Positions 3,896-30,569 of a stretch of 55,410 bases of DNA are shown here, piece after piece; positions within the stretch are counted from its first letter, which is position 1; every line of letters begins with the position of its first letter. Source of the DNA: Alphaproteobacteria bacterium. GTDB lineage: Bacteria; Pseudomonadota; Alphaproteobacteria; Rs-D84. Under the pieces are notes generated by a model, which saw only the letters and a list, made by a program, of their open reading frames with translations, was not told the DNA's origin and ran no database searches. The position numbers and the translations under genes were made by a program. The stretch spans positions 1 through 55,410 of the forward strand of contig JAIDWS010000019.1 in NCBI GenBank assembly GCA_029059055.1, given 5' to 3'.

Positions 3896-4070
3896 AAAAA
3901 ACCACCGGAAAATTCCAGGTGGCAGGAGGTTCGAAACTATCTATTATGAAATAGCGCGGGTTATTTGATATTCACCCGCCCTCCCGCCGACAAGCAGGAG
4001 ACATTTATCGTCTGCGCAGACGCATAATAGAGAGGTTTCGACGCCCCAACACCGGAATACCCGGTGTCAA
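3896..4070 (-). ncRNA. Structured leader/switch RNA, copy 1 (class A), upstream of the glycosyltransferase
   Basis: Promoter TTGCAT-N17-TATCAT (4076-4104). 5' hairpin ACACCGG/CCGGTGT. Closing stem TCGAAAC/GTTTCGA plus TCTATTATG/CATAATAGA. Switch CTCCTGC / GGCGGGAGG / CCTCCTGCC. Terminator CCACC/GGTGG-T6. Confidence 0.75.
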
Positions 4071-4109
4071 GACTTATGATACAGCCCCAAAAGAAAAAAT
4101 GCAAGGGGG

Positions 4110-4805
4110 TCAGAATAAAATATATATCGCAAACGGTGCAATCACCGCGGTCAACAATCCGGATAACACAATGGCCAGACTGCTCATGGCACCTTCGACA
4201 GGGCCCATTTCCATGGCCTTGGTCGTGCCGGCGGCGTGTGACGCGTTGCCAATGGCCAAGCCTTTGGCGATGGGATTCCGCAACCCCAACCGGCGACAGA
4301 CAACATCGCTGACCGATGCGCCCAAAATCCCGGTTACAATCACCGATGACACGGTTAATGCCACCACCCCACCCAACTTTTCTGTGATGCCGATTGCAAT
4401 CGCGGTCGTCACCGATATCGATACCAACGATTTGGCCACCACATCCCCCAACCCGAACATGATGCAAATCAGTGCCACCGAAAACACCGAACACATAACA
4501 CCGATTAAAATCGACAACAATATCGCCGGCCCGTGCCGCTTTAACAACGGCAATTGGCGATACATCGGCACCGCAAAGCACACCGTCACCGGCACCAGAA
4601 AATATGTAATATATTGCGCCCCGTTATTATACGCGTCATACGGCACACCGCACAGAACCAAAACCGCCACCACGAACATGGTCGCCAAGAACAGTGGCGT
4701 CGTCAACGGACATGGCCATTTCTTGTTAATAATCACCGCCAATGCGAACATCGCCAGCGTTAATGCCACACCAAAATATGGGGATGCAGATAAAAATTCC
4801 ATCAT
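4110..4805 (-). CDS. lrgB: LrgB/CidB-family membrane protein
   Basis: PVTVCFAVPMY, SISVTTAIAIGI, GLAIGNASHAAGTTKA motifs; coupled to lrgA. Confidence 0.92.
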   Translation of the reverse strand: MMEFLSASPYFGVALTLAMFALAVIINKKWPCPLTTPLFLATMFVVAVLVLCGVPYDAYNNGAQYITYFLVPVTVCFAVPMYRQLPLLKRHGPAILLSILIGVMCSVFSVALICIMFGLGDVVAKSLVSISVTTAIAIGITEKLGGVVALTVSSVIVTGILGASVSDVVCRRLGLRNPIAKGLAIGNASHAAGTTKAMEMGPVEGAMSSLAIVLSGLLTAVIAPFAIYILF

Positions 4806-5191
4806 TTTGCCACCTTTGCCCGGCCCCGTTGTTTAACGTTACGTTCCGCCGCATCCGGTATCAATGCCTGGGCCGTGACACCGGTTGTCACCATCGTCAC
4901 CAGATACGCCACCACCAGCAAAATGACCAACATCGGCCAGATATCGGCGATATCACCCCAAATGCCGATAATCGCAACCGCCGGCGCAACAAAGAACAAC
5001 GACATAATACCATGCAACCAATCGGCCACATCCGCCACCCACGACAATTTAACGATACCCGTGACCAGCGCAATAAATAATAAAATCAATCCATAAATAC
5101 TGCCTGCAATCGGCAACGGGATAAAATATTCCATGACTTCGCCGATAAAGACGAACAGCATGATAACCCCAAACTGAAACAGATACTTCAT
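4802..5191 (-). CDS. lrgA: LrgA/CidA-family holin-like protein
   Basis: GEVMEYFIPLPIAGSIYGLILLF and MSLFFVAPAVAII motifs; adjacent to lrgB. Confidence 0.9.
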   Translation of the reverse strand: MKYLFQFGVIMLFVFIGEVMEYFIPLPIAGSIYGLILLFIALVTGIVKLSWVADVADWLHGIMSLFFVAPAVAIIGIWGDIADIWPMLVILLVVAYLVTMVTTGVTAQALIPDAAERNVKQRGRAKVAK

Positions 5192-5258
5192 TCGCCCCCC
5201 CTGTAACTGTCTTGTAATTTACACCATTTCCGGCCCCGGTGTCAAACCACAAAAAATC

Positions 5259-5281
5259 AAAAACCGCCATACGGCGGTTTG
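5259..5281 (-). terminator. Intrinsic terminator of the OMP gene
   Basis: AAACCGCC-GTAT-GGCGGTTTTT. Confidence 0.7.
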
Positions 5282-5283
5282 TT

Positions 5284-5922
5284 TCAGAACGTATAACGCA
5301 ATCCCACGTTAACCCCGAATAAATCCACGGAATTTTCAGACGTGGTCATAAAATACCGCATTCCGACATCGGCAGACATATGTCGCGAAATATTAAACCC
5401 AATCCCACCGTGCAGACCGTACGCAAACGCCGTTTCTACCGCGGACAGGGAAACATCACTGGTGTGGCCGCCCGCATAAGATGTCATGAACGCGTCGACA
5501 TCTTCGTCCAGACGCATCATCCCCAGCCCCAGACCGACAAACGGTTTAATCTTGTAATCGACCAAGAAATCGACATATCCATTGGCCAAAACAGACGTAA
5601 ATGTCTGGTTGTTTTCGACATATCCAAATGACATGGGGAACAAATCAATATCCTTGTCATCGCCCAGGAAAGACAAAGAACCTTCGACTTCTGCGCGCAG
5701 ATTGACGCTGGTCATCTTGTATTGAACCCCGGCCGCAACTGCAACCGCGATGCCCGACGGGTCGACCCCCGCATCATCCCACGAAGATGCCGCATATCCC
5801 CCGCGCAACGCAATATATGCAGACGGTTTGTGTGATGCAGTATTTTGCGATTGTTCGCCGTGGGCATTGACCGCACAACACGCCGCAACAGGCAAAACAA
5901 ATAACGCTTTTGATTTTTTCAT
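5284..5922 (-). CDS. Outer-membrane beta-barrel protein (OMP_b-brl / opacity-porin-like)
   Basis: Signal peptide, alternating strands (LRAEVEG, KPFVGLGLG), C-terminal GLRYTF Bam signal. Confidence 0.85.
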   Translation of the reverse strand: MKKSKALFVLPVAACCAVNAHGEQSQNTASHKPSAYIALRGGYAASSWDDAGVDPSGIAVAVAAGVQYKMTSVNLRAEVEGSLSFLGDDKDIDLFPMSFGYVENNQTFTSVLANGYVDFLVDYKIKPFVGLGLGMMRLDEDVDAFMTSYAGGHTSDVSLSAVETAFAYGLHGGIGFNISRHMSADVGMRYFMTTSENSVDLFGVNVGLRYTF

Positions 5923-5968
5923 TTTTCTTCCTTTTGTTTATATAGAAACATTTTCCTATGCCAGGCAT

Positions 5969-6202
5969 AAAAAAATACCGCCAAACAAGATGGCGGTCGG
6001 GAAGTTTAGAAATCATATTTGTTGAAATGACTCCGTTGCCTTTGGGATGACCCCTGTTGTATAACAAACGGCTCCCCGACCAGGGTCAGGGATATAACGG
6101 CGCAGTCATGCACCATCACATCAGATTCAGATATCGATGCAAAACTGCACCGCAACAAATAAGGGTTCTAACACCCCCGAAGCCAAATCCCTTTGGTTTC
6201 AC
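5969..6202 (-). ncRNA. Structured leader/switch RNA, copy 2 (class B), upstream of the OMP
   Basis: TTGAAA-N17-TAAACT. 5' hairpin GAAACCAAA-GGGA-TTTGGCTTC. Stems TTAGAA/TTCTAA and TATTTGTTG/CAACAAATA. Switch TCCCTGACC / GGTCGGGGAG / CTTCCCGACC. Terminator ACCGCCA/TGGCGGT-AT6. Confidence 0.75.
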
Positions 6203-6232
6203 GAAACAGTTTAAATTATCAGAATTTTGTTT

Positions 6233-6907
6233 TCAAGAATTAATTATCCGCATCATTGCGAAATTGGCCAGGTGTAATCCAAACGCCCCCGTCACCGTTA
6301 TCATCGACCCCATGGGCGCACCCGGCGTGGCGGTGGCGGCAACTTCGTCGGAAAACACAACCGGAAAATCCGGCAATCCGCCGTCCCGCGCCATACGGCG
6401 GATTTTGGCCGCCAATGGACACACCGATGTTTTGGATATCCGGGATACGCGAATGCGTGTAATATCGGTCTTGCGCGCGGCACCCATGCTGGAAATAAAC
6501 GCAATATTGTGCGCCACGCACCATTGGTACAGTGCCAATTTCGATGCAACAGAATCAATCGCATCAATCACAAAATCCGGTTGCACATCCGGATTGCTGG
6601 CCGCATCCCAAAACATATTCAGCGCATCCACACGAACATCGGGATTAATGTCGCGCACGCGCGCGGCGGCGACATCCACCTTGGGCTGATTCAGTGTGGA
6701 CATCAATGCGAATAATTGGCGGTTGATATTGCTTTCTTCGACACGGTCAAAATCCACCAAGATTAACCGCCCCACCCCGCTGCGTGCCAAGGCTTCGATG
6801 GCAAATGACCCAACCGCCCCGCATCCGACCACCATAACCGTGGCCCCACGCAGACGTTCAACCGCCGCATCGCCCAACAACAAACGAATTCGATGTAATC
6901 TATCCAT
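6233..6907 (-). CDS. tcdA: ThiF/E1-like enzyme, tRNA threonylcarbamoyladenosine dehydratase-like
   Basis: VVGCGAVGS, LILVDFDRVEESNINRQ, VIDAID, ISSMGAA, CPLA motifs. Confidence 0.8.
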   Translation of the reverse strand: MDRLHRIRLLLGDAAVERLRGATVMVVGCGAVGSFAIEALARSGVGRLILVDFDRVEESNINRQLFALMSTLNQPKVDVAAARVRDINPDVRVDALNMFWDAASNPDVQPDFVIDAIDSVASKLALYQWCVAHNIAFISSMGAARKTDITRIRVSRISKTSVCPLAAKIRRMARDGGLPDFPVVFSDEVAATATPGAPMGSMITVTGAFGLHLANFAMMRIINS

Positions 6908-7622
6908 TGACCAATGCCCCCATACTGTTTATGTAAATCACGCCCGTCATATCCGCGCCACGCAACTGCGAAATTTTGTCCACCACCGCCATAACCACAA
7001 TCGGATTGGCGCCGTCACTTTCGGCCAAGATACATTGCCCGGGCGCGGCACGCACGCACCCCTGAACGCGGCGATGCGCGTTATCCAACACCGCCGGACC
7101 AAACGAAAAATATACCGGATACCGCTGGGCCAACATGGACATGATTTCCACACTGCCCCCGAAACCGTGCATAATCATGCGCGGCGGTATATTATCCCCC
7201 AGCCGGATTAACACCCGAAGCAATCGGTCCCATGCCCCCACCCAATGAATATGAACCACCCGGCGCAAATCGGCCGCAATTTCCATCTGGCGGATAAAAA
7301 CAGATTCTTGGGCATCGATGTCGGGATAATTTTTATCCAGACCGATTTCCCCGACCATCAAATCCGGCCGCGCGACCAAGGCATCGGCCATGCGCATATC
7401 CCATCCGTCCCGTACCGCGCCCACATGCCAGGGATGAATCCCGATGGCACCACACACACCGGGCGTATTTGCCGACGCATTCATAATGGGCGCCCAATCC
7501 ATTTCTGTGACGGCGTTCCATACGCATTTGGCAACACCGGCCCGCTGGGCGGCGGCAACAACCGCGTCCATATCGGCCCCGGCATTCAAATGGCAATGCG
7601 CATCAACATAATATTTATTCAT
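6900..7622 (-). CDS. tatD: TatD-family hydrolase/DNase
   Basis: DAHCHL, GIHPWH, VGEIGLD, MHGF, LAESD motifs. Start trimmed to MNKYYV. Confidence 0.88.
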   Translation of the reverse strand: MNKYYVDAHCHLNAGADMDAVVAAAQRAGVAKCVWNAVTEMDWAPIMNASANTPGVCGAIGIHPWHVGAVRDGWDMRMADALVARPDLMVGEIGLDKNYPDIDAQESVFIRQMEIAADLRRVVHIHWVGAWDRLLRVLIRLGDNIPPRMIMHGFGGSVEIMSMLAQRYPVYFSFGPAVLDNAHRRVQGCVRAAPGQCILAESDGANPIVVMAVVDKISQLRGADMTGVIYINSMGALVNG

Positions 7623-7801
7623 ACCCCAACCATAGCCCGCCACCACCCGTTTTTTCAAGTAAATATTACGTCGTTTCCGCATATTGCGGCTGACTATTTT
7701 TTCCTAGGAATTCTTACTTCTACACCGGGGTGGCGGGCTGTGATAATATTCAATCTGTTTCTAGATTTTATTCCCAAATATGAGAACCACAGGAGGGAAA
7801 C

Positions 7802-8056
7802 ATGACTCATACCGGCATTTGGGCCGCCGTGGATAAAGTTGCAGAAATTATGGGATTGACACCGTCAGCGCTGGCCCGACGCTGTGGGATGGATGCGACC
7901 GCGTTTAATAAAAGCAAGCGTTGCACACAATACGGCCAGCCCCGTTGGCCATCCAGCCAAACCATTGCCAAGATTATTGAAACCGCCGGCGTATCCGAAG
8001 ACGAATTCTTTCGCATGGCGCGCATGTACGACCAGCCGGGCGTTTCATCCAAATAA
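7802..8056 (+). CDS. Helix-turn-helix transcriptional regulator (N-terminal domain of alphaproteobacterial phage-repressor-like S24 proteins)
   Basis: IWAAVDKVAE..GLTPSALARRCGMDATAFNKSKR...RWPSSQTIAKI; GGAGG RBS. Confidence 0.75.
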   Translation: MTHTGIWAAVDKVAEIMGLTPSALARRCGMDATAFNKSKRCTQYGQPRWPSSQTIAKIIETAGVSEDEFFRMARMYDQPGVSSK

Positions 8057-8100
8057 GTAAAATATGGGCGACATTTTATCGCCGCCCAAATATCGTTTGA

Positions 8101-8580
8101 TTACAAGATTGATCCATAATAACAATTTCCCCCACTGATGGTCCAATCGCCGGTATTGTCGGTGCCACTGGTCCCATCCATCAAGAAACAATCGAATATC
8201 GATGATCTACCCACGGCCGACGTACCGGGTTCCGGACATGGCGAACAAGACTGGCCCTTGCCGTAATATCCCGCGTTACATTGGTATTCGCACGCGCCGT
8301 CTGAACATCGTACGCTATAATTTTGACCACTGACACTGGTCCAGAACGCCGTCGGACATTCCGATGGGCACAGAACCGGATCGATGGGTGTAATGGTACC
8401 ACTGGTCGGACATCCCGCCGCAGCACAGGTTTCATTTGACGCCCGGCAACAGTTGACTTCACCGTCGCGAATTGGACACATAACGGTATAAGTTGCATTA
8501 CATGTGCGCGCATGCGCATTCGTGTACCCCAACACCCCCAGTATGCCCACACAACATAACCAAACAATGTTTTTATTCAT
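8101..8580 (-). CDS. Secreted Cys-rich hypothetical protein
   Basis: Signal peptide, many Cys, EGF/ephrin-like CNAGYYG...CSPCP segment. Confidence 0.75.
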   Translation of the reverse strand: MNKNIVWLCCVGILGVLGYTNAHARTCNATYTVMCPIRDGEVNCCRASNETCAAAGCPTSGTITPIDPVLCPSECPTAFWTSVSGQNYSVRCSDGACEYQCNAGYYGKGQSCSPCPEPGTSAVGRSSIFDCFLMDGTSGTDNTGDWTISGGNCYYGSIL

Positions 8581-8604
8581 GATTTACCCCCCTTGGTTTG
8601 GTGT

Positions 8605-8830
8605 AAAAAACCGCCACAGAATATGGCGGTCAGGGAGTTAGCAAATCACCTAAAAGATTGATTCCGCCAGCCTTTGGGAAACCCTGTTTTATAACTGGCA
8701 GCTCCCCGACCAACTGGCGGGGTATACAACAAAAGACGCTTACGCGCCCCATCGGCGGATTCAGTATTGCATGCAATACTGCTTTTAGGAGAGCTTGCTA
8801 CAGCCCTGAACCACATCCCTATGGTTCTAT
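8605..8830 (-). ncRNA. Structured leader/switch RNA, copy 3 (class B), upstream of the Cys-rich gene
   Basis: TTGACT-N18-CATAAT. 5' hairpin GAACCATA-GGGA-TGTGGTTC. Stems TAGCAA/TTGCTA and CCTAAAAG/CTTTTAGG. Switch CCCCGCC / GGTCGGGGAG / CTCCCTGACC. Terminator ACCGCCA/TGGCGGT-T5. Confidence 0.75.
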
Positions 8831-8981
8831 GGGTTAATTATGAATTATTCCAACGCACAAAGTCAAACAAATAATATGTTGTGGGGGCTTGATTACAAAA
8901 AAACGTGTGATATAATATGTCAACCAGGTAAAGCGTTATTTGCAATGTATGTCTGAAAACATGTGGGGAAAGAGGAGTCGC

Positions 8982-9257
8982 GTGAAGCACATATTATTGC
9001 CTGTATTTTGTGCGTTTTTGTGTTTGATGCCGTGGCGGCAATCGTTGGCCGATACCGCGGATTCGCGTCTGGCATCGGCAACATATGTCGATAACCGCAT
9101 CGCCGCCGCCGAAGAACGCGTCGTCAGCAAAGAAGAATTAAATACTTTTTCCGGCCAATTGCCCGAACAATTTGTCACAACATCCAGCCCCCAGGAAATT
9201 TCCGGCACCAAAACATATACCCAATCCCCGATTGTCCCGACACCGCCGTTGCCATAA
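8982..9257 (+). CDS. Small secreted hypothetical protein with tail-fibre-like motifs
   Basis: AGGAG RBS before GTG, signal peptide, ASATYVDNRI and QEISGTKTYTQSPIVPTP segments; coupled to the next gene. Confidence 0.6.
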   Translation: MKHILLPVFCAFLCLMPWRQSLADTADSRLASATYVDNRIAAAEERVVSKEELNTFSGQLPEQFVTTSSPQEISGTKTYTQSPIVPTPPLP

Positions 9258-10528
9258 TGATAAAACGTTTGTTGGCCATTTTTTGCCTGTTGTTCGTGTC
9301 AACCGCCCATGCGGCGGAAATGGTAAACGTCGAATATATCCATTCGGCCATCAAACACCACTGGGGCATCGCCGTACCGTACAACCCCGCATTAACCAAC
9401 CCGCGGGTGGCGGCCAATATGAAATATCTGTTGACGGCAATCGACCGCGCAAACGAATTGCAAAACAATAAAACCAGTTATGGGACAAATGCGACCTTTG
9501 CCACATTGGCGGCGGCCGATACGGTGGCGACAAACGACGCAATAAAACGCTTTATCACACAACCGTTTTTTATCACAACCACCCCCACCACGACCAGCTT
9601 TACATTCGAACTGTCGGCCCAGGGCAGCTTTACCGTCACATGGGGCGATGGGTCCAGCGAATCCATTGTGAAAAACGACACCGAAATGAAATCTTATTCC
9701 CACACGTACAGTCGCGCGGGCGAATATAAAATCGGCTTTTCCGGAACGGCCACCGCGTACAGTACCGCCGACCCGCGCACAGACCCGACCGCGGCCATAC
9801 GTTTTTGGAAAAACAACGACATCGCCGCAATCAGCGGGTCATTGGGCGCCATATTCAGCACAATCGGCAACGGCGCAACGGCGGCCCAGCAACCGATATT
9901 CCATAACACATTTCGTGAATGCAAAAATTTGACCAGCACCATTCCCGAACAATTATTTGTCGGCATACATGGCGCACCGGCCGAACGCATGTTTGCCGGC
10001 ACGTTCCAAAGCACACCGTTCACCGGTTCCATTCCCGCAGATTTATTTGCCGAAATCAAGGGCGCGCCAGCATGGGCCATGTTTAACAATACATTTCACA
10101 TGTCCGTATTAACCGGCACAATTCCGGGCAATCTGTTCCGGGGCATATCGGGCGCACCGGCGGAATACATGTACAGTGGCACATTTATGCACTGCAAAAA
10201 TTTAACCGGCGAAATACCGGCGGGACTGTTTGGTGACATCCATGGCGCCCCGGTGGAATATATGTATTACGGCGTTCTGGGCAACAATCCGGGCTTGACG
10301 GGTCAAATCCCGGAAAACTTGTTTGGCGATATATCGGGTCCGGCGGCCCCATGGATGTTTTATCAATCCTTTTTAAATGACAGCGGTCTGACGGGGCCAT
10401 CTGCCCGCATTAATGGACAATATTTGTACGAGATATGGCCATCCCCCCCCGAAAATGGCAGTACATCCTGTTACGGCAACGCCACGGGTCTGTCTGATTA
10501 CAGCACCATCCCCGCACAATGGAAATAA
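9257..10528 (+). CDS. Secreted protein with a PKD-like domain and ~25-26-aa LRR-like solenoid repeats
   Basis: Signal peptide; FTVTWGDGS...SHTYSRAGEYKI (PKD); about six repeats of TFxxxxxLTGxIPxxLFxxIxGAPAxxM. Confidence 0.8.
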   Translation: MIKRLLAIFCLLFVSTAHAAEMVNVEYIHSAIKHHWGIAVPYNPALTNPRVAANMKYLLTAIDRANELQNNKTSYGTNATFATLAAADTVATNDAIKRFITQPFFITTTPTTTSFTFELSAQGSFTVTWGDGSSESIVKNDTEMKSYSHTYSRAGEYKIGFSGTATAYSTADPRTDPTAAIRFWKNNDIAAISGSLGAIFSTIGNGATAAQQPIFHNTFRECKNLTSTIPEQLFVGIHGAPAERMFAGTFQSTPFTGSIPADLFAEIKGAPAWAMFNNTFHMSVLTGTIPGNLFRGISGAPAEYMYSGTFMHCKNLTGEIPAGLFGDIHGAPVEYMYYGVLGNNPGLTGQIPENLFGDISGPAAPWMFYQSFLNDSGLTGPSARINGQYLYEIWPSPPENGSTSCYGNATGLSDYSTIPAQWK

Positions 10529-10579
10529 ACCCACCGCCGCATGGCGGTGTTTTTTTTACGGCAACCACAAACATCATGA

Positions 10580-10863: not shown

Positions 10864-10919
10864 GAACCCTGGACCCAATGATTAAAAGTCATTTGCTCTA
10901 CCAACTGAGCTATGTCCCC
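10844..10919 (-). tRNA. tRNA-Lys(TTT)
   Basis: GGGGACA/TGTCCCC acceptor, GACT-TTT-AATC anticodon arm, GGTTCGAG T-loop, encoded CCA. Confidence 0.96.
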
Positions 10920-19938: not shown

Positions 19939-20295
19939 TTATGGCATCCGATTGGCGGCCAAGGCATCCGTTATCAGGATAACGGCGTTAATATGCCGCG
20001 GGTCCATTTTATCCAGATTGCGCATAATACGCATACGTTTGGCGTCCTGGGTGTAATTGGCATCTGATTCCTGTAAAAATTGGCCCATTGGTATTTCCAA
20101 GTATTTACATATCTGATGCAGACGCGACACCGACATGCGATTACCGGCGCATTCATATTTTTGTATTTGTTGAAATGAACATCCAACGGCGCGTGCCAAG
20201 GCCTTTTGCGACAGTCCCTGGCGCGTGCGGTGCATGGTTAATAATCGACCCAAGCGTTTGTCATAATCGGTTACCAGTGTTGTTTTTCCGGCCAT
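19939..20295 (-). CDS. XRE-family HTH transcriptional regulator
   Basis: LGRLLTMHRTRQGLSQKALARAVGCSFQQIQKYECAGNRMSVSRL. Confidence 0.9.
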   Translation of the reverse strand: MAGKTTLVTDYDKRLGRLLTMHRTRQGLSQKALARAVGCSFQQIQKYECAGNRMSVSRLHQICKYLEIPMGQFLQESDANYTQDAKRMRIMRNLDKMDPRHINAVILITDALAANRMP

Positions 20296-20322
20296 TGCCA
20301 TCCCCCATCATATTATGGTTAT

Positions 20323-20496
20323 AAAAAACCGCCGCATAATATGGGCGGGTTGGAAATAGAAACCATGTTAAAGCGACACGTCTGCCTATTCAATATATTC
20401 AGCAGTTTCCAACCCATGAACGGATTGGCGTTTAACGCCTGCGCAGGCGGCTTTAAGCGAGGTTTCTAATCCCGCATAATAGGTTCCCTATTACAG
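20323..20496 (-). ncRNA. Structured leader/switch RNA, copy 4 (class A), upstream of the XRE regulator
   Basis: -10 TATAAT (20502-07). Stems TAGAAACC/GGTTTCTA and TTAAAGC/GCTTTAA. Switch CCAATCC / GGGTTGGAAA / TTTCCAACCC. Loop GAATATATTGAATA. Terminator CCGCC/GGCGG-T6. Confidence 0.75.
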
Positions 20497-20531: not shown

Positions 20532-20752
20532 AAAAAAATGGCCGCCCGTGCATTAAACTGGGTGGCCAAGGGGTGTTCAAAAATCATACTGAATAGATGA
20601 CTCCGTGGGCCTTACGACCAACGGCACCCCCGGCCAGGCACGGGGATATAACGGTGCGATGCACCGCTTATTCCTACTATTTACGATGCGTTATCGCACC
20701 GATTCAGTATGGGCTTTTGACAACCCCGAACCCACATCCCTGTGGATTCATG
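20532..20752 (-). ncRNA. Structured leader/switch RNA, copy 5 (class B)
   Basis: -10 TATGAT. 5' hairpin GAATCCACA-GGGA-TGTGGGTTC. Stems TCAAAA/TTTTGA and CATACTGAAT/ATTCAGTATG. Switch CCCCGTGCC / GGCCGGGGGTG / CACCCCTTGGCC. Terminator GGCCACCC/GGGCGGCC-AT7. Confidence 0.72.
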
Positions 20753-20819
20753 TCATATCATAACATGCGTCGCACGAAATAACAACCGAAATTATTTTCT
20801 GGATTGTTTCTATGGCAAT

Positions 20820-20987
20820 AAAAAAACCACCAAAAAATTCAGGTGGTTGGAGATTAAGTACCATTGAAAGATATGGCGTCGCTTATTCGATATATTCACG
20901 CCCCCCCAACCCATGGGGTGGAGTTTTTCATCCATTACAGATGTCTTTCAGGGGCTATCACACCCCGACGACGGAACACCCGTCGCC
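20820..20987 (-). ncRNA. Structured leader/switch RNA, copy 6 (class A)
   Basis: -10 TATAAT. 5' hairpin GGCGACGG/CCGTCGTC. Inner stem TGAAAGA/TCTTTCA; outer stem degenerate. Switch CTCCACCCC / GGGTTGGGG / CTCCAACC. Loop GAATATATCGAATAA. Terminator ACCACC/GGTGGT plus T run. Confidence 0.7.
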
Positions 20988-21045
20988 AAATTAATTATAC
21001 GATATGGCAGAATAAAAATCCATTATTTTGTTTGGGGAATTTTTT

Positions 21046-21150
21046 GGTTGGGCGATGGTAACCACCAAAGGTGTGGTTCCGTTTATTCTATTATATTGAC
21101 GGACACCCAACCAACCAGAATATTATATGACATTTGGCCCGTTAAATCAA
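21046..21150 (-). ncRNA. Minimal module of the same RNA family, with its own promoter
   Basis: TTGATT-N17-TATAAT (21122-21150), then GGTTGGGTG/CGCCCAACC enclosing TCCGT-CAATATAATAGAATAA-ACGGA. Confidence 0.55.
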
Positions 21151-21203
21151 CAGATGGGCCGAATGGCCCATCTGAAATCTACTGGATTGCTTCTACGGCA
21201 AAT

Positions 21204-21370
21204 AAAAACCACCAAAAAATTCAGGTGGTTGGAGAATGATAGCCATAGAAAGATATGGTGTCGTTTATTCGATATATTCACGACCCTCCAACCCAATGGG
21301 CGGAGTTTTTCATCCATCACGGATGTCTTTGTGGGGTTACCATACCCCGGCAGCAGAACACCTGCTGTCG
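21204..21370 (-). ncRNA. Structured leader/switch RNA, copy 7 (class A), near-duplicate of copy 6
   Basis: TGGCAT-N17-TATAAT. 5' hairpin CAGCAG/CTGCTG. Stem ATGGTAACC/GGCTATCAT. Switch CTCCGCCCA / GGGTTGGAG / CTCCAACC. Same loop and terminator as copy 6. Confidence 0.72.
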
Positions 21371-21453: not shown

Positions 21454-23226
21454 TCACACCAAATGCGCGTCACGCATCAGTTCTTCGATATACGTGTTTT
21501 CGATTTTCTTTAACCCGCGGCGTTCCAATAACGTCACAAACCACGGTAATTTCATCTGGCGCAGGGTCTTTTTATCCGTCAGATAATACAGACTGCGCAG
21601 CAATACGCGCACGTCAAAGCATGAACCGAATACTTCTGGTACGCCGCGGTCAATGTTCATCAGGGTATAAACCGCTTCCATCGCGGTGCGGACGGAATAT
21701 TCGGTCGTGAACACCGTATCGCGAACGGTTTCCGCGTAATTGCCGATGAATGCCAAATTCACCGACCCGTTTGGCACGACGGCCGGCCGGTCACCCAATG
21801 CGCGCGGCATGAAATACGTCGTGATGAACGGCATATGGCACGGCACGGTGTTGGCGGATGTTGTCGCGATTTCCATAATCTGGGATTCGGGAACGCCGAT
21901 GTGATACAACCATTCCGCGCACAGTTCGGCGCCGGTGCATTCGGTGATTTTCTTCTTTATATAATTACCCGGCCGGTCGGAAAACAGACCGTATACCCAA
22001 ACGATGGTTTGGTTCTTTTTCTGGGCACGGAAATGCGGCTGGCGCGAAATGCTGAACCCGTATAACCAATTGGAATCTTTTATTGTGACGGGGCCACTGC
22101 TGACGATGGAACCGCTGTGCGGGTCTTTTTTGCAAATCTTTTCAATATACGGCGTGACGCTGTCGTCGTTTAATGTGATGGTCGCGCTGATAACCCAATT
22201 GGCCGCCGGTATGTTTTCACAGAACTTTTCCGGATGGCCGAAATCGGGTGATTGCGCCGCCAATTTTTTCCACAATTTCCACGAACCGCCAATGTCCGTC
22301 GGTGTGGGCGCCGGTGTGCTGTTGGTGCCGTATGTACTGCTTTCGGTGATGGACCCGTTGGTCACAAATACCAAATCATTGCGGGTCAGCGATATGGTCT
22401 TTTTCTTGCCGGATGTCACCAATTCGATTTTTTTGGCGACTTTCTGGTCCGGGGTGACGTCAACCACGATGTTGGTTACCTGGGTATCATAATGGAATTG
22501 AACACCGCGCGATTCCAGATATTTCACCAACGGCAAAATCAAAGATTCATACTGATTATATTTGGTGAATTTCAATGATGACATATCGGCCAACGCACCC
22601 ACATGGTGGATAAAGCGCAATATATATCGGCGCATTTCCATGGCACTGGACCATGGTTCGAACGCGAACATCGTCGCCCAATACAGCCAGAAATTGGATT
22701 CAAAGAATTCATCTGTAAAAACCTGGTCGATGCGGACGTCTTGTAATTCTTCTTCGGTCATCAGGGCCAGTTTGATTAATTCCCGGATGGCGGTCGGGGT
22801 CAATGTCAATTTGCCGTCGGATTTCATACGTTTACCGCGTTTTTCGATGACGCGGGCGTGTGAAAAGCTGGGGTCGGATTTGTTCAGCCAATAAAATTCG
22901 TCCAAAACCGACGCGTCGGCCGTTTCCAGGGACGGAATCGACCGGAACAAATCCCACAGGGTTTCAAAGTGGGCCTCCATTTCACGGCCGCCGCGAATGA
23001 TAAATCCGCGCTGTGGGTTCCAGATGCCGTCCATACTGCCGCCGGGAACGGCCAATTCTTCAAAGATATGAATTTTTTTGCCGTCAACGCCCCCGTCGCG
23101 GATTAAAAACACCGCCGCCGCCAGTGATGCCAGACCACTGCCGACCAGGTATGCGGATTTTTTATCCGCATCTTTTGGGCGCATCGGCCGGGCAAAGGCT
23201 TCGTAATTTCCATTGCTGTAATACAT
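21454..23226 (-). CDS. ohyA: Oleate hydratase (myosin-cross-reactive antigen family)
   Basis: [14 protein letters not shown] start, [23 protein letters not shown] motif, [40 protein letters not shown]. Confidence 0.96.
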
Positions 23227-23560: not shown

Positions 23561-23628
23561 AAAAAAGACTTGATTTTGGCTGTGATATATCCTAGAATCC
23601 GCATCAGAATAATAAAAGGCAGAATAAA

Positions 23629-23808: not shown

Positions 23809-23902
23809 GACTGTACCATGATATTTCCCGCCCCCATGGGCGGGATTTTTTATACGCAAATTCCATGGTCATAAAAAAATCCCCCGAACGGGGGGATTGC
23901 CT

Positions 23903-24619: not shown

Positions 24620-24791
24620 GTATTTTCTATCCCTTGGTTTTCTTAACTGTGCCCCCAGTATAAAAGAAAACCCGGGGATTACAATAAAAACTTTAATCGG
24701 AATACGAACCGTTTGGTGGGGGCATGGGGATTTTTGGGGGTTGCTTTTTATCTTATATATTGTTATGCTGTTCACGCTACAAAGGATTTTT

Positions 24792-25796
24792 ATGTCAGCC
24801 AAGACAAAACGCTTTATCAAGAAGCTGATTAGTTATTCGGGGATATTCTTTTTCATTTTGGCCGCCGGTATGCTGTACTGGCAGCTGCGCGATAAAAGTC
24901 TGCGTGATATCGCCCATGCCATTATGGCCATTCCGTTGACCAATTTGGCGTTGGCCTGTGTGGCGTGTCTGGCGGGGTATTTCGCATTGGCGTTGTATGA
25001 TTATCTGGCACTGAATTACGTCGGTGAAAATAAAAAGGTGTCCTGGTGGAAATGGATGCTGGCGGGGATGTTGGGATTCGCCATCAGCAATAATGCCGGA
25101 CACGCCGTTGTCAGCGGGGGCGCCATTCGATATCGCCTGTATACCCGGTGGCGCGTGCGCAGTGGGGATATCGTCAAAATGTTGACGTTGTCCGGATTTA
25201 CATACTTTTTGGGGGCGGCGGCGATTGTCGTTATCGGATATTTTCTGGTGCCGCATGATATTTTCAACCGGTCGTCCGGTATCAGTATGGGACTGAACTG
25301 GCTGTTTGGCATCTGTCTGGCCGCGATTGTGGCATATTTTGTCATGACGGTCTTTTTCCATAACAAAACCATCAAGATTGCCCAGGTGAAATTCCAGATC
25401 CCGACAACCAAAATGGCTGTCATGCAGATGGGGCTGGGCATCACCGACAGTGTGCTGGCCGGATTGGTGCTGTATTTCTGCCTGATACCGTTTGTCCAGA
25501 TTCCGTTCGGAACATTTATCGGTTTGTTCGTCATTGCCCAGACCACCGGCGTATTCAGCCAGGTTCCCGGCGGCATGGGGGTCTTTGAAACGGTGTTTTT
25601 GGCGGCATTCCCCGACACCGTGGACAAAGCCAATATTTTCGGCGCATTGTTGGCGTACAGAATTATTTATTATGTATTGCCGCTGATTGGGGTGGGTGGA
25701 TTATTCTTTATCTATGAACGGTGGTTGCGGGCGCGGATGCGTCGCTGGATTGACGAAGCCCGTCAAAAACTGCCCAAATTCACAACCAAGAAATAA
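24792..25796 (+). CDS. Lysylphosphatidylglycerol-synthase TM domain / YbhN-like membrane protein
   Basis: Multi-TM; SGGAIRYRLYTRW, SQVPGGMGVFE, ALLAYRIIYYVLPL; no C-terminal synthase domain. Confidence 0.8.
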   Translation: MSAKTKRFIKKLISYSGIFFFILAAGMLYWQLRDKSLRDIAHAIMAIPLTNLALACVACLAGYFALALYDYLALNYVGENKKVSWWKWMLAGMLGFAISNNAGHAVVSGGAIRYRLYTRWRVRSGDIVKMLTLSGFTYFLGAAAIVVIGYFLVPHDIFNRSSGISMGLNWLFGICLAAIVAYFVMTVFFHNKTIKIAQVKFQIPTTKMAVMQMGLGITDSVLAGLVLYFCLIPFVQIPFGTFIGLFVIAQTTGVFSQVPGGMGVFETVFLAAFPDTVDKANIFGALLAYRIIYYVLPLIGVGGLFFIYERWLRARMRRWIDEARQKLPKFTTKK

Positions 25797-26035
25797 TTCA
25801 CGGCCCCGGATAACGGGGTCGTTTAAAATTGCCTTGCCATGAATGGGGGTGGCATGCTATGCTGTATGGCGTAGTATTTTATAGGGTAAATTATACGTGT
25901 TTATATCACAATTGATTTTCATGGTTCGAACGGTGCTGTTGGGTATCTTGGCGCCTTTCCTTGGCATGGGCTGGACCGCCCCACGGGAACGGGTCGTGGC
26001 TGTAAAATACGCATATAAAACCAAAGGATTACTTG

Positions 26036-27835
26036 ATGTCAAAGAAGATTTATGTGGACGCAGTCCACCCGGAAGAAACGCGGGTGGTGGTGGTGGATAC
26101 CGCCACGAACCGGGTTTCTGATTTTGACGTTGAAACAACGACAAAACCACAGATAAAGGGGAACATTTATCTGGCCAAGGTTATTCGCGTCGAACCGTCG
26201 TTACAGGCGGCATTCGTGGATTATGGGTCGGGAAAAAACGGATTCTTGCCGTTTTCGGAAATTCATCCCGATTATTACCAGGTTACCCCGGAACAAAAGA
26301 AAAAATTACTGGAATTGGCGCATGCGAACATCGTTGATGACGACGATGACCCGAATGATGATGATGACGAAGTCGCCGAATACGACGACCACAGCGCCGG
26401 CGAAGACAACAAAGAATTTGTAAAACGCGCCCGCGAATTTAAGATTCAGGACGTTATCAAACCCAAACAGATTTTGCTGGTCCAGGGTGTCAAAGAAGAA
26501 CGTGGCCAAAAGGGCGCGTCCATGACAACATACCTGTCGCTGGCGGGGCGCTTTGCGGTGTTGATGCCCAATTCGCGCAAGCGTAACAGTTACGGCATTT
26601 CCAAGAAAATTTCGGACAAGGCCGAACGTGCCCGTCTGCGTGATATCTTGCACGGGTTGAAAATTCCGCGCGGGATGACGGTCGTTCTGCGTACGGCGGC
26701 GTTTGGTGCGTCGGCGGCCGATGTGGCCAACGATTATGATTATCTGGTGGGGTTGTGGAACGAAATCCGCAAGACCACGCTGGAATCGGTTGCGCCCGTC
26801 ACCATTCACACCGAAGATTCACTGTTGCGTCGTGTTGTGCGCGATTTTCTGTCGGACAAAGAAGATGTTCTGGTTATCCAGGGGGATGAAGCATATGAAG
26901 CGGCCCGTGGTTATTTCCAACAGATGTACGGCCGCGCGCCGCGTAAACAATTGGTGCAATATCGCGACGCCGCCGTCCCATTAATGGTCAAGGCCGGCGT
27001 TGAAAAACAACTGGAAGGCTTGCACGGCCCATATGTTCAGTTGCCGTCGGGCGGGTCTTTGGTTATCAACCAGACCGAAGCCATGGTCACCATCGACGTC
27101 AATTCGTCCCGCGCGATTAAGGAAAAAGATATCGAACAAACGGCCCTGAACACGAATTTAGAAGCGGCCGAAGAAATCGCCCTGCAACTGCGCCTGCGCG
27201 ATTTGGCGGGGATTGTTGCGATTGACTTCATCGACATGGAAGAAGACAAGAACAACCGCAAACTGGAACTGAAAATGCGCGAAGTCATGAAACGTGACCG
27301 CGCCCGTACCCAGGTTGCCAAGATTAACAATTTCGGCGTATTGATGTTGTCGCGCCAACGCCTGCGCAGCAGTTTCATGGAATCTTCGTATGTCCAGTGT
27401 CCGCATTGCTTGGGCGCGGGTGTTGTGCCGTCCATCCAGACCGCGGCGATTATTCTGTTCCGTCATTTGCAAGAAAAACTGTTGGCGAAATCGGCCCAGA
27501 AAATCATCATGACGGTTCCGACAGATGTTGCGATTTATCTGTTGAATCACAAGCGGGCGGAATTGGCCGAAATGGAATCCAAATTCGATACCGAAATCGT
27601 GATTGTCGGCGACGACAGCCTGATGAATATTGACCAGTATTCGATTCAGCGTGTTGCCCCCGAACAGAACAAAACCGAAGATTTGTTGACGGCATATGCC
27701 CCGTCGACGGACGCGAAAAAGAAAAATCAAAAGCATATGGATGCCAAAAAGACAACCATGAATGCCCCGCGTCGCCGGCGTCGCCGCCCCCAGGAAAAAA
27801 AGAAGAAAACCCTGTGGGAAAAAATCGTTGGTTAA
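26036..27835 (+). CDS. rne: Ribonuclease E/G
   Basis: KGNIYLAKVIRVEPSLQAAFVDYG, EERGQKGA, TIDVNS, RLRDLAGIVAIDFIDM, CPHCLG Zn link. Confidence 0.95.
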   Translation: MSKKIYVDAVHPEETRVVVVDTATNRVSDFDVETTTKPQIKGNIYLAKVIRVEPSLQAAFVDYGSGKNGFLPFSEIHPDYYQVTPEQKKKLLELAHANIVDDDDDPNDDDDEVAEYDDHSAGEDNKEFVKRAREFKIQDVIKPKQILLVQGVKEERGQKGASMTTYLSLAGRFAVLMPNSRKRNSYGISKKISDKAERARLRDILHGLKIPRGMTVVLRTAAFGASAADVANDYDYLVGLWNEIRKTTLESVAPVTIHTEDSLLRRVVRDFLSDKEDVLVIQGDEAYEAARGYFQQMYGRAPRKQLVQYRDAAVPLMVKAGVEKQLEGLHGPYVQLPSGGSLVINQTEAMVTIDVNSSRAIKEKDIEQTALNTNLEAAEEIALQLRLRDLAGIVAIDFIDMEEDKNNRKLELKMREVMKRDRARTQVAKINNFGVLMLSRQRLRSSFMESSYVQCPHCLGAGVVPSIQTAAIILFRHLQEKLLAKSAQKIIMTVPTDVAIYLLNHKRAELAEMESKFDTEIVIVGDDSLMNIDQYSIQRVAPEQNKTEDLLTAYAPSTDAKKKNQKHMDAKKTTMNAPRRRRRRPQEKKKKTLWEKIVG

Positions 27836-27837
27836 CC

Positions 27838-27867
27838 AAAAACACCCGCTGTGGCGGGTGTTTTTTT
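27838..27867. terminator. Bidirectional intrinsic terminator
   Basis: AAAAACACCCGC-TGTG-GCGGGTGTTTTTTT. Confidence 0.85.
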
Positions 27868-27895
27868 GTGGAAATCCATCCCAGATTGCGGGGCG

Positions 27896-28123
27896 TCACA
27901 GATTATTCTTGCCGCGCTTGATAATCAGCATTGCGAACGCCCCGTGGTAAAATCGGCGCATGTTGCCTTCGTCAAATAACATCTTGCCGCGTTCGCATTT
28001 GACATAGTCTGCGTATTTCATCTTTAACAACGCGGCCGCGTCGCGGCTGTTTATTTTCAGGTGTTCGCGGGCGCACCGCATAATATTGCCATAGTAATTG
28101 GCGTCGATTAACAGTCTTGGCAT
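27896..28123 (-). CDS. Small XRE-like HTH protein
   Basis: IMRCAREHLKINSRDAAALLKMKYADYVKCERG resembles the XRE helix pattern; AAGGAG RBS. Confidence 0.6.
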   Translation of the reverse strand: MPRLLIDANYYGNIMRCAREHLKINSRDAAALLKMKYADYVKCERGKMLFDEGNMRRFYHGAFAMLIIKRGKNNL

Positions 28124-28149
28124 AGTTTTCTTCTCCTTATGTTTCTTTT

Positions 28150-28322
28150 AAAAAAACACCGCCGCACGGAATTGTGGGCGGTTGGAGGTTAGAAACTATC
28201 GATACAATAGCACGGCTTATTCAATATATTCGCCGTCCTCCAACCAACGGGGGTTGGAGATGTTTTGTGTCATCGCTGACAGTATCAAAAGGTTTCTAAG
28301 CCTACACCGGTTTCCCAATGCG
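28150..28322 (-). ncRNA. Structured leader/switch RNA, copy 8 (class A), upstream of the small HTH gene
   Basis: TTGAAC-N17-TATACT. 5' hairpin with GAAA loop. Stems TTAGAAAC/GTTTCTAA and TTGATAC/GTATCGA. Switch CTCCAACC / GGTTGGAGG / CCTCCAACC. Loop GAATATATTGAATAA. Terminator ACCGCC/GGCGGT. Confidence 0.78.
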
Positions 28323-28506
28323 TATCCAGTATATCGCATCCCGCGCGAATGTTCAAGGAATTTAAATTTATTGGTGTGTTGCCCAATCATCCCCCGTCGC
28401 GACATCACGGCGTCACGGCGTTTATTTTCATTCATTCCTTGACATGGGGCGCGGCGGGTGGTAATTATCACGGGCTGTTTTTATTATGCGTTTTGGGGGA
28501 ATGAAT

Positions 28507-29868
28507 ATGATACGCAATCAAAGTCAAAAAATTGAATTATTGGGACACGCACCCGTACGACGGGCATTGTTGGCCATGGGATTGCCAACCATGATTGGAA
28601 TGGTGATTATGGCCCTGTATAATCTGGCGGATGCGTATTTTGTGGCCGGATTGGGAACCGGACCCATGGGCGCGATTTCGGTGTTATTCCCACTGTCCCA
28701 GATTGTGGTTGGGGTCGCATTGTTGTTTGGAACGGGGGCGGCATCATATATCGCACGTCTGTTGGGACGCGACGATACACGCCATGCCAACCAAGTGGCC
28801 AGTACCGCCCTGTATGGCGGCGTATTGGCCGGGGCAATTGTCATCGGATTGGTCATGATGTTTATGACAGATGTGTTGCGGATGTGCGGGGCAACGGACG
28901 GCATTATGCCGTATGCCATCACATACACCGCAATTTATTTGCCGTTTGCAATCTTTGGCATATTTAATGTCACCATGAACAACATCGCCACCAGCGAAGG
29001 TGCCACCCGCGTCAGCATGCTGGGGATGGTGGCGGGCGCAATCGCCAACATTATTCTGGACCCGATTTTGATTTATGGGGCCGATATGGGTATCGCCGGC
29101 GCCGCAATCGCGACCGCGGTCGGAATGATGATGTCGTCTGCGATTTATCTGCGATATATGTTCAGTCATAAAAGTATCTTTACATTTCGCCCGCGCGATT
29201 GCCGATTTAACCGTGAAAACATGGTCGAAATTTTAAAGATTGGTATTCCCACACTGGTCGCCAGTGTGTTAACCGCGACATCGGTCACATTGACCAACCG
29301 TGCGGCGGCCCCGTTCGGCGATGTGGCCATCGCGGCACTGGGGACGGTGTTGCGCATTTTGGCCATCGGCGCATTGATGGTATTCGGATTTATCAAGGGG
29401 TTCCAGCCCATCGCCGGGTTCAGTTATGGCGCCCGCAATTTTGACCGACTGCGCGATGTGACACGCACCGCCATTCGTTGGACGACGGCATTTTGTGCCG
29501 TAACGGGCGCGGTATTGATTGCGCTGCGCACGCCCATCATGGCCCAATTCGCCGCCGGCGACGCCCAAATGATGGCGATTGGAACCGCGGCATTGACAGC
29601 ACATGCGGCGGCGTTGGTCACATTTGGTTTTTACACCGTGTGTTCATGCCTGTTTCTGGCGTTGGGGCGCGCACGTGCGGGCTTGTTCCTGGGCATCTGC
29701 CGCCAGGGAATTTGTCTGATTCCGGCCATTATTATCATGCCGACCATATGGGGATTAAACGGCGTTTTGTACGCCCAACCGGTGGCCGATTTGATTGCGT
29801 GTGTCATCGCCGGGATTATGACATGGCGTCTGCAACGTGATTTGCGGGCCATGCGCGCGGGGAAATAA
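28507..29868 (+). CDS. MATE-family efflux transporter
   Basis: MGLPTMIGM..LYNLADAYFVAGLG, NIILDPILIY, MGIAGAAIAT, GFQPIAGFSYGA. Confidence 0.93.
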   Translation: MIRNQSQKIELLGHAPVRRALLAMGLPTMIGMVIMALYNLADAYFVAGLGTGPMGAISVLFPLSQIVVGVALLFGTGAASYIARLLGRDDTRHANQVASTALYGGVLAGAIVIGLVMMFMTDVLRMCGATDGIMPYAITYTAIYLPFAIFGIFNVTMNNIATSEGATRVSMLGMVAGAIANIILDPILIYGADMGIAGAAIATAVGMMMSSAIYLRYMFSHKSIFTFRPRDCRFNRENMVEILKIGIPTLVASVLTATSVTLTNRAAAPFGDVAIAALGTVLRILAIGALMVFGFIKGFQPIAGFSYGARNFDRLRDVTRTAIRWTTAFCAVTGAVLIALRTPIMAQFAAGDAQMMAIGTAALTAHAAALVTFGFYTVCSCLFLALGRARAGLFLGICRQGICLIPAIIIMPTIWGLNGVLYAQPVADLIACVIAGIMTWRLQRDLRAMRAGK

Positions 29869-29912
29869 AAAAAGACTATGCCCCGGCACACCACGTGTGG
29901 TATGGTGCGGGC

Positions 29913-30314
29913 ATGCAAAGATTTAAACGCGCTGTTTTCTGCTACTATCTGTTGCACTTTCCGTGCGGGATGCACGCGTGGTTAATCATGTTGACGGGGG
30001 CATTGCGGCGCGACGGATTATTGACCATCGGCGCCACCCAACGAAAACAGGTTGCCGTCTGGGTCGGGCGCATGTTCGCCAAACCGGCCGATTTCGAAAC
30101 AATATTGCACGTCTTGTTGGGGGACACGTTTTTCGAACGAAACAAAGCGGACGTTTTAAAACTGGAACGCGAAGTTGGACGCCGCGTCATCGATTTGTGG
30201 GATACCGACCCGATATTTGACCGATATCCCCATTTGCGCGGATTGGGCCGGAACAAAGAATTCGAAGAACGCATGGCCAAAATGAAACAGGCCGCACGCG
30301 AAAAACAAAAATAA
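29913..30314 (+). CDS. Hypothetical protein
   Basis: Only plausible ORF in the gap; start uncertain. Confidence 0.55.
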   Translation: MQRFKRAVFCYYLLHFPCGMHAWLIMLTGALRRDGLLTIGATQRKQVAVWVGRMFAKPADFETILHVLLGDTFFERNKADVLKLEREVGRRVIDLWDTDPIFDRYPHLRGLGRNKEFEERMAKMKQAAREKQK

Positions 30315-30388
30315 TCAATGGGTGTTCCGTACGGAAAAAATTCCCATAAATTTGTTGAAAAAACATCAAAAGTATGTATAATGAAAAA

Positions 30389-30569
30389 CGTGACAGACTA
30401 TGACCACTGTCACGGGGTGTAGAAACCCCGCCAGTAGCGTCCACAGGCGACGTAAATGCCTCCAACTATGGGTTGGAGGGCGGCTGTTATAAGACTCGTT
30501 CCAAGGCACCGCACTATCTACTGGTAGTTTCTACCCTCCAGCCCACCTTCCGGTCAAGGCGGGTATTTT
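30389..30569 (+). ncRNA. Structured switch-like RNA, copy 9 (intermediate class), no downstream gene
   Basis: TTGAAA-N16-TATAAT. 5' hairpin GTGACAG/CTGTCAC. Stems GTAGAAAC/GTTTCTAC and CCAGTAG/CTACTGG. Switch CCTCCAAC / GGGTTGGAGGG / CCCTCCAGCCC. Imperfect terminator. Confidence 0.72.

Follow-up and report, generated by a model that had tools for sequence, protein, structure and literature searches.

What function is served by short, structured and mutually divergent intergenic elements that recur along a single contig of an uncultured gut alphaproteobacterium, each with a promoter and a terminator of its own? The question is raised by a stretch of 55,410 nt (contig JAIDWS010000019.1; its whole length is referred to here as the window), in which an earlier note had pointed out nine such elements between positions 3896 and 30569 and proposed that they form an undescribed, lineage-expanded class of cis-regulatory RNA switches. 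The analysis described below leads us to consider that each element is probably the 5′ leader of its own transcription unit, acting in cis as a transcription attenuator of the same kind as the Brt RNAs of Bartonella and sRNA-Xcc1 (Rfam RF02221). The family is not wholly new; it is a strongly expanded and rewired variant of that kind.

Fold and covariation of the RNA family

The nine elements align with each other, in the positions and on the strands first proposed for them, at ~51% mean column identity, and RNAfold returns the same minimum-free-energy (MFE) architecture for all of them: a hairpin at the 5′ end (P0), a long helix between strands a and a′ (P1) that encloses P2, P3 (b1:b) and P4, and then a GC-rich hairpin followed by a U-tract. 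All strings that had been quoted for a/a′, for the inner extension and for b1/b/b2 can be read directly in the window sequence. The count of nine was real but incomplete, because a tenth full copy (E10), situated outside the range first considered, and a core-only partial copy (Ep) had been overlooked; both were recovered by a hidden Markov model (HMM) of the nine copies and by a covariance model (CM) of the family built from six copies (R1). In the 998-kb host genome (96% complete), the HMM gave 81 matches with nhmmer and R1 gave 74 copies, some located at contig ends, and the family occupies ~1.5% of the genome. The RNA also occurs in each of the 36 further genomes of the genus, at between 1 and more than 40 copies per genome, and in 9 of the 12 genera sampled in the order. 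The checks that the earlier note had recommended, namely alignment of the nine copies, a covariance model, and scans of the genome and of its relatives, bear out both the family and its expansion in the lineage.

Covariation was examined in 68 short-type copies from the host and related genomes (set A4). In the modelled fold, 90.3% of cells are paired and 38 of 43 pairs have changed on both sides, a level reached by none of 500 shuffles, and slid controls pair at 40–49%. The a:a′ stem, including its copy-specific inner extension, covaries as had been described from the nine copies. The proposed layout is real, but it missed the small hairpin P2 between strand a and b1 and two further helices, Pa and P5. 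Pa is a G-run:C-run stem around the outer part of strand a (column 29:44, GC in 42 and AU in 13), and P5 is a CUAU:AUAG stem around the inner part of a′ (column 215:237, UA in 43, AU in 15 and CG in 4). Pa, P5 and b:b2 were not part of the alignment model, and the alignment was therefore not fitted to these helices; nevertheless, 94.9% of their cells are paired and 11 of their 17 pairs are double-changed (again 0 of 500 shuffles), with b:b2 and P5 pairing in 92–98% of cells, with covariation. RNAfold also draws a pairing of the G-run with b2 at the foot of P1; this pairing does not covary, since A29 has U44 and not C250 as its partner, and it was replaced by Pa.

In the resulting model, Pa together with P1-outer, and P5 together with P1-inner, are each arranged topologically as an H-type pseudoknot, which explains why the a:a′ helix has a conserved 'internal loop'. 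Some 30 nucleotides that stay unpaired are conserved over the 68 sequences and as far as Xcc1. The a/a′ strands, by contrast with this shared frame, differ from copy to copy: a-inner matches the a′ loop of its cognate partner best in 48 of 73 copies, and, when the outer and inner strands are taken jointly, the cognate partner ranks first of 77 in 67 of the 77 copies.

Proposed switch module, terminator and downstream genes

Segment b reads GGUUGGRGG in most copies and is complementary to both b1 upstream and b2 downstream; variant classes of b (GGCRGGAGG, GGUCAGGAGG, GGUCGGGGA, GGCUGGGGG and others) exist in which b1, b and b2 change together. Cognate b and b2 are complementary over 9.4 bp on average, with 7 bp or more in 72 of 75 copies, compared with 6.4 bp for non-cognate combinations with other classes, in agreement with the claim that b can pair with either b1 or b2 and that all three covary. 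The 3′ end of b2 had also been said to be the start of the terminator stem, and the shared part is now defined as 3 nt, the last three of b2 (ACC) being the first three of the stem. Column 253, the single variable position in this overlap, still pairs with both b (column 127) and the 3′ arm of the terminator (column 283) when it changes. Because of the shared nucleotides, formation of b:b2 would unpair the terminator base beside the U-tract.

The competing folds were compared at the decision point, where all but the 3′ arm of the terminator has been transcribed; the fold with b:b2 forced is less stable, by a median of 7.5 kcal/mol, than the terminator-permissive fold with P1 and b1:b. In the full-length RNA, the terminator-permissive fold is the MFE structure in nearly all copies, and the gap is 13 kcal/mol. 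It is likely from the difference at the decision point that termination is the default, and in terms of these calculated energies the default state is probably to terminate. A leader-peptide attenuator, or a Shine–Dalgarno-like role of b with a start codon, was ruled out by the absence of a conserved open reading frame (ORF), since a closed ATG ORF of at least six codons begins at any given alignment column in 11 of 68 copies at most.

Every copy has its own σ70-type −35/−10 pair, ending ~7 nt before P0, so that the description of the elements as promoter-driven holds. An ORF starts behind the element in ~65 of the 74 near-full-length copies (~88%), at a median distance of 21 nt (range 0–36). 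Such a gap is too short for another promoter, and the downstream genes must be transcribed through the terminator of the element; with most copies placed ~21 nt upstream of an ORF that lacks space for a promoter, a role as cis attenuator is the best reading. By the class of this ORF, 27 copies precede secreted proteins with at least nine cysteines, 19 a 75-residue XRE-like helix-turn-helix (HTH) protein (HTH75), 5 an XRE regulator of ~120 residues, and 14 other ORFs; the glycosyltransferase and outer-membrane protein (OMP) genes of the window stand behind E1 and E2.

We propose that, during synthesis, b1 would capture b and the 5′ domain would dock on a′, leaving b2 free and the terminator able to form; this OFF state would yield a stable RNA of 170–230 nt and no expression of the downstream gene. 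If docking of the 5′ domain (a and b1) were prevented or reversed, the 3′ half would take an Xcc1-like fold with b:b2 paired, which would remove the base of the terminator stem beside the U-tract, and RNA polymerase would read into the gene 10–36 nt downstream (ON state). Candidates for the trigger are a metabolite, a protein or an RNA that acts on the conserved P4 loop and junction. Copies that have no gene behind them would probably give the short RNA alone or pass read-through to the next unit of an array. Of the switch class that had been postulated, the promoter-driven structured family, the mutually exclusive b1:b and b:b2 pairings and the overlap with the terminator stand, whereas its status as undescribed does not.

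Several points weigh against this assignment. Termination, read-through and the RNA ends, like switching and its default state, are inferred from sequence. Conservation is far higher in segments b, b1 and b2 than in the other helices, and most of the support for b:b2 consequently comes from a minority of variant classes. The OFF fold is favoured thermodynamically to such an extent that a constitutive leaky terminator would also be conceivable. Four to seven copies have no downstream gene, and E5, E6, E7 and E9 in the window have none directly behind them, so that not all copies are cis-regulatory; in E6 and E7, moreover, a matches a′ in cis worse than it matches a neighbouring copy. As for the parallel with Bartonella, a plasmid-borne Brt copy has no U-tract terminator overlapping b2, and the Brt mechanism may differ in detail, while homology to Brt rests on architecture and a linked XRE gene, with neither a significant sequence score nor a significant CM score.

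Copies in the window and alternative explanations

The copies in the window fall into short-type and long-type leaders (Table 1), and the parts are itemized for E1.

Table 1 Copies of the RNA family in the window, with the parts of copy E1
Feature	Position	Strand	Description
E1	3891..4068	-	Short-type leader RNA; CM match of 154.5 bits; fold
E1 downstream gene	2939-3874	-	GT92/GT2 glycosyltransferase; Pfam match
E1 promoter	4076..4104	-	-35 TTGCAT (4099-4104), 17-nt spacer, -10 TATCAT (4076-4081); same layout in 78 copies
E1 P0	4049..4067	-	5′ hairpin at predicted transcript start; all 7 P0 pairs covary
E1 Pa hairpin	4032..4047	-	GGGG, loop with a-outer (CGTCGAAA), then CCTC; Pa pairs covary
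E1 a-inner	4023..4031	-	TCTATTATG; copy-specific 'barcode', pairs with a′-inner at 3940-3948
E1 P2 hairpin	4009..4022	-	From the fold; all 5 pairs covary
E1 P3	3980..4000	-	b1 CTCCTGC (3994-4000), loop, b GGCGGGAGG (3980-3988)
E1 P4 hairpin	3956..3979	-	Conserved A/U-rich loop GAAUAU..AAUAA; loop motif also in sRNA-Xcc1 consensus
E1 P5 stem	3931..3954	-	CTAT/ATAG around a′-inner, then a′-outer GTTTCGA; P5 covaries
E1 b2 and terminator	3896..3929	-	b2 CCTCCTGCC (3921-3929) overlaps terminator stem-loop (3902-3922); U-tract 3896-3901
E2	5967..6201	-	Long-type leader; precedes OMP beta-barrel/Opacity-family gene 5284-5922 (-); Pfam
E3	8600..8830	-	Long-type leader; precedes gene for 159-aa secreted protein with 17 Cys (8101-8580 -)
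E4	20318..20495	-	Short-type leader; precedes XRE-family HTH gene XRE120 (19939-20301 -); Pfam
E5	20532..20752	-	Long-type, in tandem array; no ORF directly behind
E6	20816..20987	-	Short-type tandem copy; no ORF behind; a-outer fits a′ of E7 better than its own
Ep	21009..21175	-	Core-only partial copy: b, P4, P5/a′, b2; a′ matches 5′ strands of E7
E7	21198..21369	-	Short-type tandem copy; first of array, downstream of MCRA gene
E8	28148..28322	-	Short-type leader; precedes 75-aa XRE-like HTH gene HTH75 (27901-28123 -), one of 19 units
E9	30389..30573	+	Orphan copy converging on priA (30649-32862 -)
E10	51499..51739	+	Long-type copy; precedes 112-aa ORF (51743-52081 +)

Among the genes behind the leaders, those for secreted proteins with 9–23 cysteines (~27 loci genome-wide, such as the one behind E3) are the commonest, and the proteins have no Pfam or PHROG match. 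The HTH75 gene occurs in 19 genome copies (the one behind E8 and 18 other loci), each behind its own leader, and a related gut metagenome-assembled genome has 17 copies. The promoter region of these units (TTGAACATTCGCGTATGATGCGATATACT) is better conserved than the ORF, suggesting a shared operator; HTH75 itself gave weak HTH matches and no relative in the Protein Data Bank.

Ep has a consensus TATAAT immediately upstream and lacks both the 5′ domain and the U-tract terminator, and it resembles a stand-alone Xcc1-like RNA gene. The long-type E3 contains an internal hairpin and U-run between P2 and b1 (GGCGCGUAAGCGUC UUUUGUUGU), with a similar one in locus L037, which recalls the first terminator of Xcc1/IsrK-type 5′ domains; in some long-type copies this feature could free a short 5′-domain RNA. 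The tandem array lies immediately downstream of a gene of the MCRA (oleate hydratase-like) family (21454-23226, minus strand), whose orthologue was found in 11 of 40 other genomes of the genus sampled, with the RNA array beside none of the 11. Within the array, the 5′ strands of E7 pair with a′ of Ep at −18.4 kcal/mol compared with −8.2 kcal/mol for its own a′, and those of E6 pair with a′ of E7 at −19.8 kcal/mol compared with −10.9 kcal/mol for its own; this cross-complementarity could reflect a recombination mosaic or a neighbour-to-neighbour relay.

One alternative is that the elements are primarily genes of small RNAs that act in trans, like c4, IsrK or sRNA-Xcc1, and that their position in cis is secondary or their function dual. 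The terminated RNA, or a processed 3′ core, would then pair through a′ or b with other transcripts and flip their fold, the candidate targets being nascent leaders that have the b class, or the locus of origin, in common with it. Orphan and tandem copies such as E5, E6, E7 and E9, the core-only Ep with its own −10 box, the complementarity of E6 and E7 across copies and the b/b2 segments common to most copies would all fit such a function. So would the in-register, sub-threshold match of the 3′ half to sRNA-Xcc1, the pairing of a′ in genuine Xcc1 loci to either side, with a1 upstream and with a2 over the Shine–Dalgarno sequence downstream, the action of IsrK in trans on its own read-through transcript (PMC4825925) and the published proposal that Brt1 is trans-acting as well. 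However, the a/a′ barcodes are private to each copy, which would make cross-talk between loci rare, and in the stable fold pairing in cis occupies a′, b and b1 alike. In addition, nothing resembling an a2 target is found downstream of the copies, searches of the genome with the E. coli proteins by tblastn gave no homologue of Hfq or CsrA, and the great majority of copies stand directly before an ORF. A primary function in trans is rather unlikely.

We also regard as unlikely that the element is a constitutive structured leader, in which a cap-like 5′ structure and a leaky terminator would provide fixed low expression, or insulation, of laterally acquired cassettes; there would be no regulated switching, and the complementarity of b2 would be a folding aid or a remnant of the Xcc1-type closing stem. 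The predominance of the terminator-permissive fold, with its large gap at full length, is what such a leader would be expected to display; b:b2 is indeed a constitutive closing stem in the Rfam consensus of Xcc1, no ligand pocket or partner has been identified, and the tandem cluster is not syntenic in relatives, pointing to fast turnover of units. The three-way covariation of b2 and its constant 3-nt overlap with the terminator are, however, hard to explain without functional competition, and the ~30 unpaired nucleotides conserved up to Xcc1 speak against a merely passive leader, as does the reported dependence of Brt1 read-through on heme and on the conditions of growth (PMC8070961).

A mobile or selfish repeat, whether like a miniature inverted-repeat transposable element or a mobile promoter–terminator cassette with incidental RNA structure, is very improbable and was rejected: the very high copy number and share of the genome, the copies at contig ends, the unconserved position of the cluster in relatives and the mosaic of halves in E6, E7 and Ep could be taken in its favour, but copies only ~50% identical have kept every helix by compensatory changes, indicating selection on the RNA fold, and they have no terminal inverted repeats, target-site duplications or transposase, a fixed orientation, a tight distance to downstream ORFs and a distribution across the whole order.

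The cis attenuator may also be extended into a more daring proposal, to which we attach a low likelihood: the family would be a programmable, self-addressed RNA switch that a minimal gut bacterium has set before ~65 genes, including much of the secretome and small regulators, in which the private a/a′ barcode insulates each copy from the other 80 and the shared b1/b/b2 module turns docking of the 5′ domain into a choice between termination and read-through. In its boldest form, the RNA of a locus, or of a neighbouring core-only unit such as Ep, would titrate the 5′ domain of nascent transcripts of the same locus, providing locus-specific positive feedback and a bistable, phase-variation-like expression of surface and secreted proteins without a change in DNA; Brt, sRNA-Xcc1, IsrK and c4 would then constitute one superfamily of three-site switches. 

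If the cis-attenuator model itself holds, one RNA device gates the transcription of ~6–7% of the genes in an uncultured gut alphaproteobacterium with a 1-Mb genome, among them most of the secreted Cys-rich proteins and about two dozen tiny XRE regulators; no single attenuator family would be known to be deployed more densely. The structural model, with two pseudoknots and b1/b/b2 competition, is testable and applies to the Bartonella Brt RNAs; the analysis further connects these with sRNA-Xcc1, which is widespread but little understood, and with the antisense modules c4 and IsrK, and a joint full-length covariance model would allow the whole superfamily to be annotated.

Comparison with known RNA systems

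At its gathering thresholds, Rfam 15 recognizes six tRNAs in the window and nothing else, in line with the earlier note, which had suggested a search of Rfam and could match the elements to none of the consensus motifs that it named, from T-box to yybP. With riboswitches, T-box elements, PyrR-dependent attenuators and trp leaders the family shares the opposition of terminator and antiterminator, the upstream b1 corresponding to an anti-antiterminator, and, like T-box elements, the copies are promoter-proximal and multiple within a genome. No riboswitch or T-box model of Rfam was listed for the family copies even at E values up to 10, and the elements differ from these systems in having no conserved leader ORF, no known ligand and no shared metabolic theme downstream. 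The conserved unpaired nucleotides of the P4 loop and J2/3 are compatible with binding of a small molecule, for which they are not diagnostic.

The c4 RNA (RF01695; phages P1 and P7, with the a1b1 leader) and IsrK (RF01394; Gifsy-1) are also leader RNAs with segments complementary to upstream and downstream sites, and their heterologous copies likewise differ by matched changes at all of the sites. The a1b1/a′b′/a2b2 scheme of c4 in phage P1 was reportedly laid out by Citron and Schuster in 1990. IsrK exists as a short terminated form and a read-through form with two alternative folds (PMC4825925). Neither model reaches its gathering score in this family: c4-2 gave 16.8 bits (E = 3.7), and the isrK model gave 29.5 bits, compared with the required 50, on the 5′ half of one copy. 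The latter match is made of generic hairpins and an internal U-run and is kept as a lead alone. In c4 and IsrK the output is translational and in trans, whereas here a three-way site, b1/b/b2, is predicted to govern transcription termination in cis; furthermore, there is no prophage context here.

sRNA-Xcc1 is carried by integron cassettes, prophages and plasmids of Xanthomonas, Xylella and a wide range of other Proteobacteria. At permissive thresholds, 6 of 20 copies were matched by RF02221 in their 3′ half, each time in register (b, P4, P5, linker, b2 and CaCC), with 27–39.9 bits for the best genome copies and 19.3–23.7 bits for window copies, below the gathering cut-off of 53. The closing stem b:b2 around P4, with its A/U-rich internal loop, and P5, the linker and the 3′ CaCC are all found here, and the P4 motif GAAUAYA...GAAUAAG lies within the in-register half. 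Flanks were read for 30 genuine Xcc1 loci from other Proteobacteria (L091-L120). At 60–100 nt upstream they carry a G-run/C-run hairpin, in several loci GAGGCGUCGAAACCUC, nearly identical to Pa of E1, with a loop (a-outer) complementary to the Xcc1 linker; then follow an a-inner segment that can pair with the P5 loop and a hairpin that resembles a terminator and has a b1-like loop. On the downstream side, both a segments recur (a2) over the Shine–Dalgarno sequence of the next gene, which is often antirepressor-like, a c4-like arrangement for translational control. The 5′ domain of these loci matches no Rfam family at threshold, RF02221 covering the core alone.

Two differences from Xcc1 stand out. 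The 5′ domain of Xcc1 loci is split from the core by its own terminator-like hairpin and ~50 nt, whereas here the two are fused; and the output of Xcc1 is a2 over the Shine–Dalgarno sequence, whereas here it is an intrinsic terminator overlapping b2, with no a2. A c4-type downstream target was also sought in this family and rejected, as the P5 loop and a′-outer pair with their own downstream sequence no better than non-cognate ones do. Conversely, R1 gave terminator-like or marginal matches alone on the genuine Xcc1 loci. Tandem arrays are known for Xcc1 also, with five copies in Xylella as an example (PMC12189769).

The Brt RNAs offer a functional precedent. As described by Tu et al. (2016), they occur in 2–34 copies per Bartonella genome, are 194–203 nt long and highly expressed, and are followed at ~15 nt by XRE (trp) genes that are poorly transcribed (PMC5387305). 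According to a review, the 3′ stem-loop of Brt1 attenuates transcription, its deletion having led to high transcription of trp1, and Brt1 read-through rose as heme fell (PMC8070961). The Brt RNAs control the regulator of the BadA adhesin, by a mechanism still described as no more than a '3′ stem-loop'. We located the published pan-Brt probe (29 of 29 nt) in the B. grahamii plasmid pBGR3, in the intergenic region before an XRE gene, where positions 26468-26690 fold (z = −5.4) into P0, both parts of P1 (outer and inner), P2, the b1:b hairpin and P4, and b2 (CUCCCGG) can pair with b. Across five Bartonella plasmid copies, changes in a-outer are compensated in a′-outer, and those in a-inner in a′-inner, and the XRE protein linked to the plasmid Brt is 37% identical to XRE120 of the window (E = 4e-15). 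The likeness thus includes the order of parts (P0, Pa with a-outer, a-inner, P2, b1:b, P4, P5 with the a′-inner loop, a′-outer and b2), a nested hairpin in P4 of the plasmid Brt as in the long-type copies here, and the form of a multicopy RNA of ~200 nt with its own promoter that ends ~15 nt before an XRE gene. Placement before an XRE gene is seen for E4 (XRE120), E8 (HTH75) and altogether 24 of the 74 genome copies, and not for the ~41 that precede other genes.

With RF02221 matching in register below threshold, the 5′ domain shared by Xcc1 loci and the architecture shared by Brt RNAs, the class cannot be called undescribed. These links are based on architecture, one-directional sub-threshold CM matches and a shared XRE gene. 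No sequence similarity is detectable between Brt and the family here: the pan-Brt probe is absent from the 998-kb genome with up to 8 substitutions allowed, and neither R1 nor the Rfam Xcc1 model scores the plasmid Brt copy. The plasmid Brt ends in a GC hairpin that has no U-tract and stands apart from b2, whereas b2 overlaps a U-tract terminator in this family. For Brt, the literature within our reach gives a predicted secondary structure and the 3′ stem-loop, and a model with two pseudoknots and b1/b/b2 competition is absent from the accessible Brt and Xcc1 literature. Finally, Brt RNAs have been reported before XRE genes alone, at 1–13 per Mb in Bartonella, whereas two-thirds of the copies here precede genes for Cys-rich secreted proteins, an OMP, a glycosyltransferase and others, at a density of ~80 per Mb.

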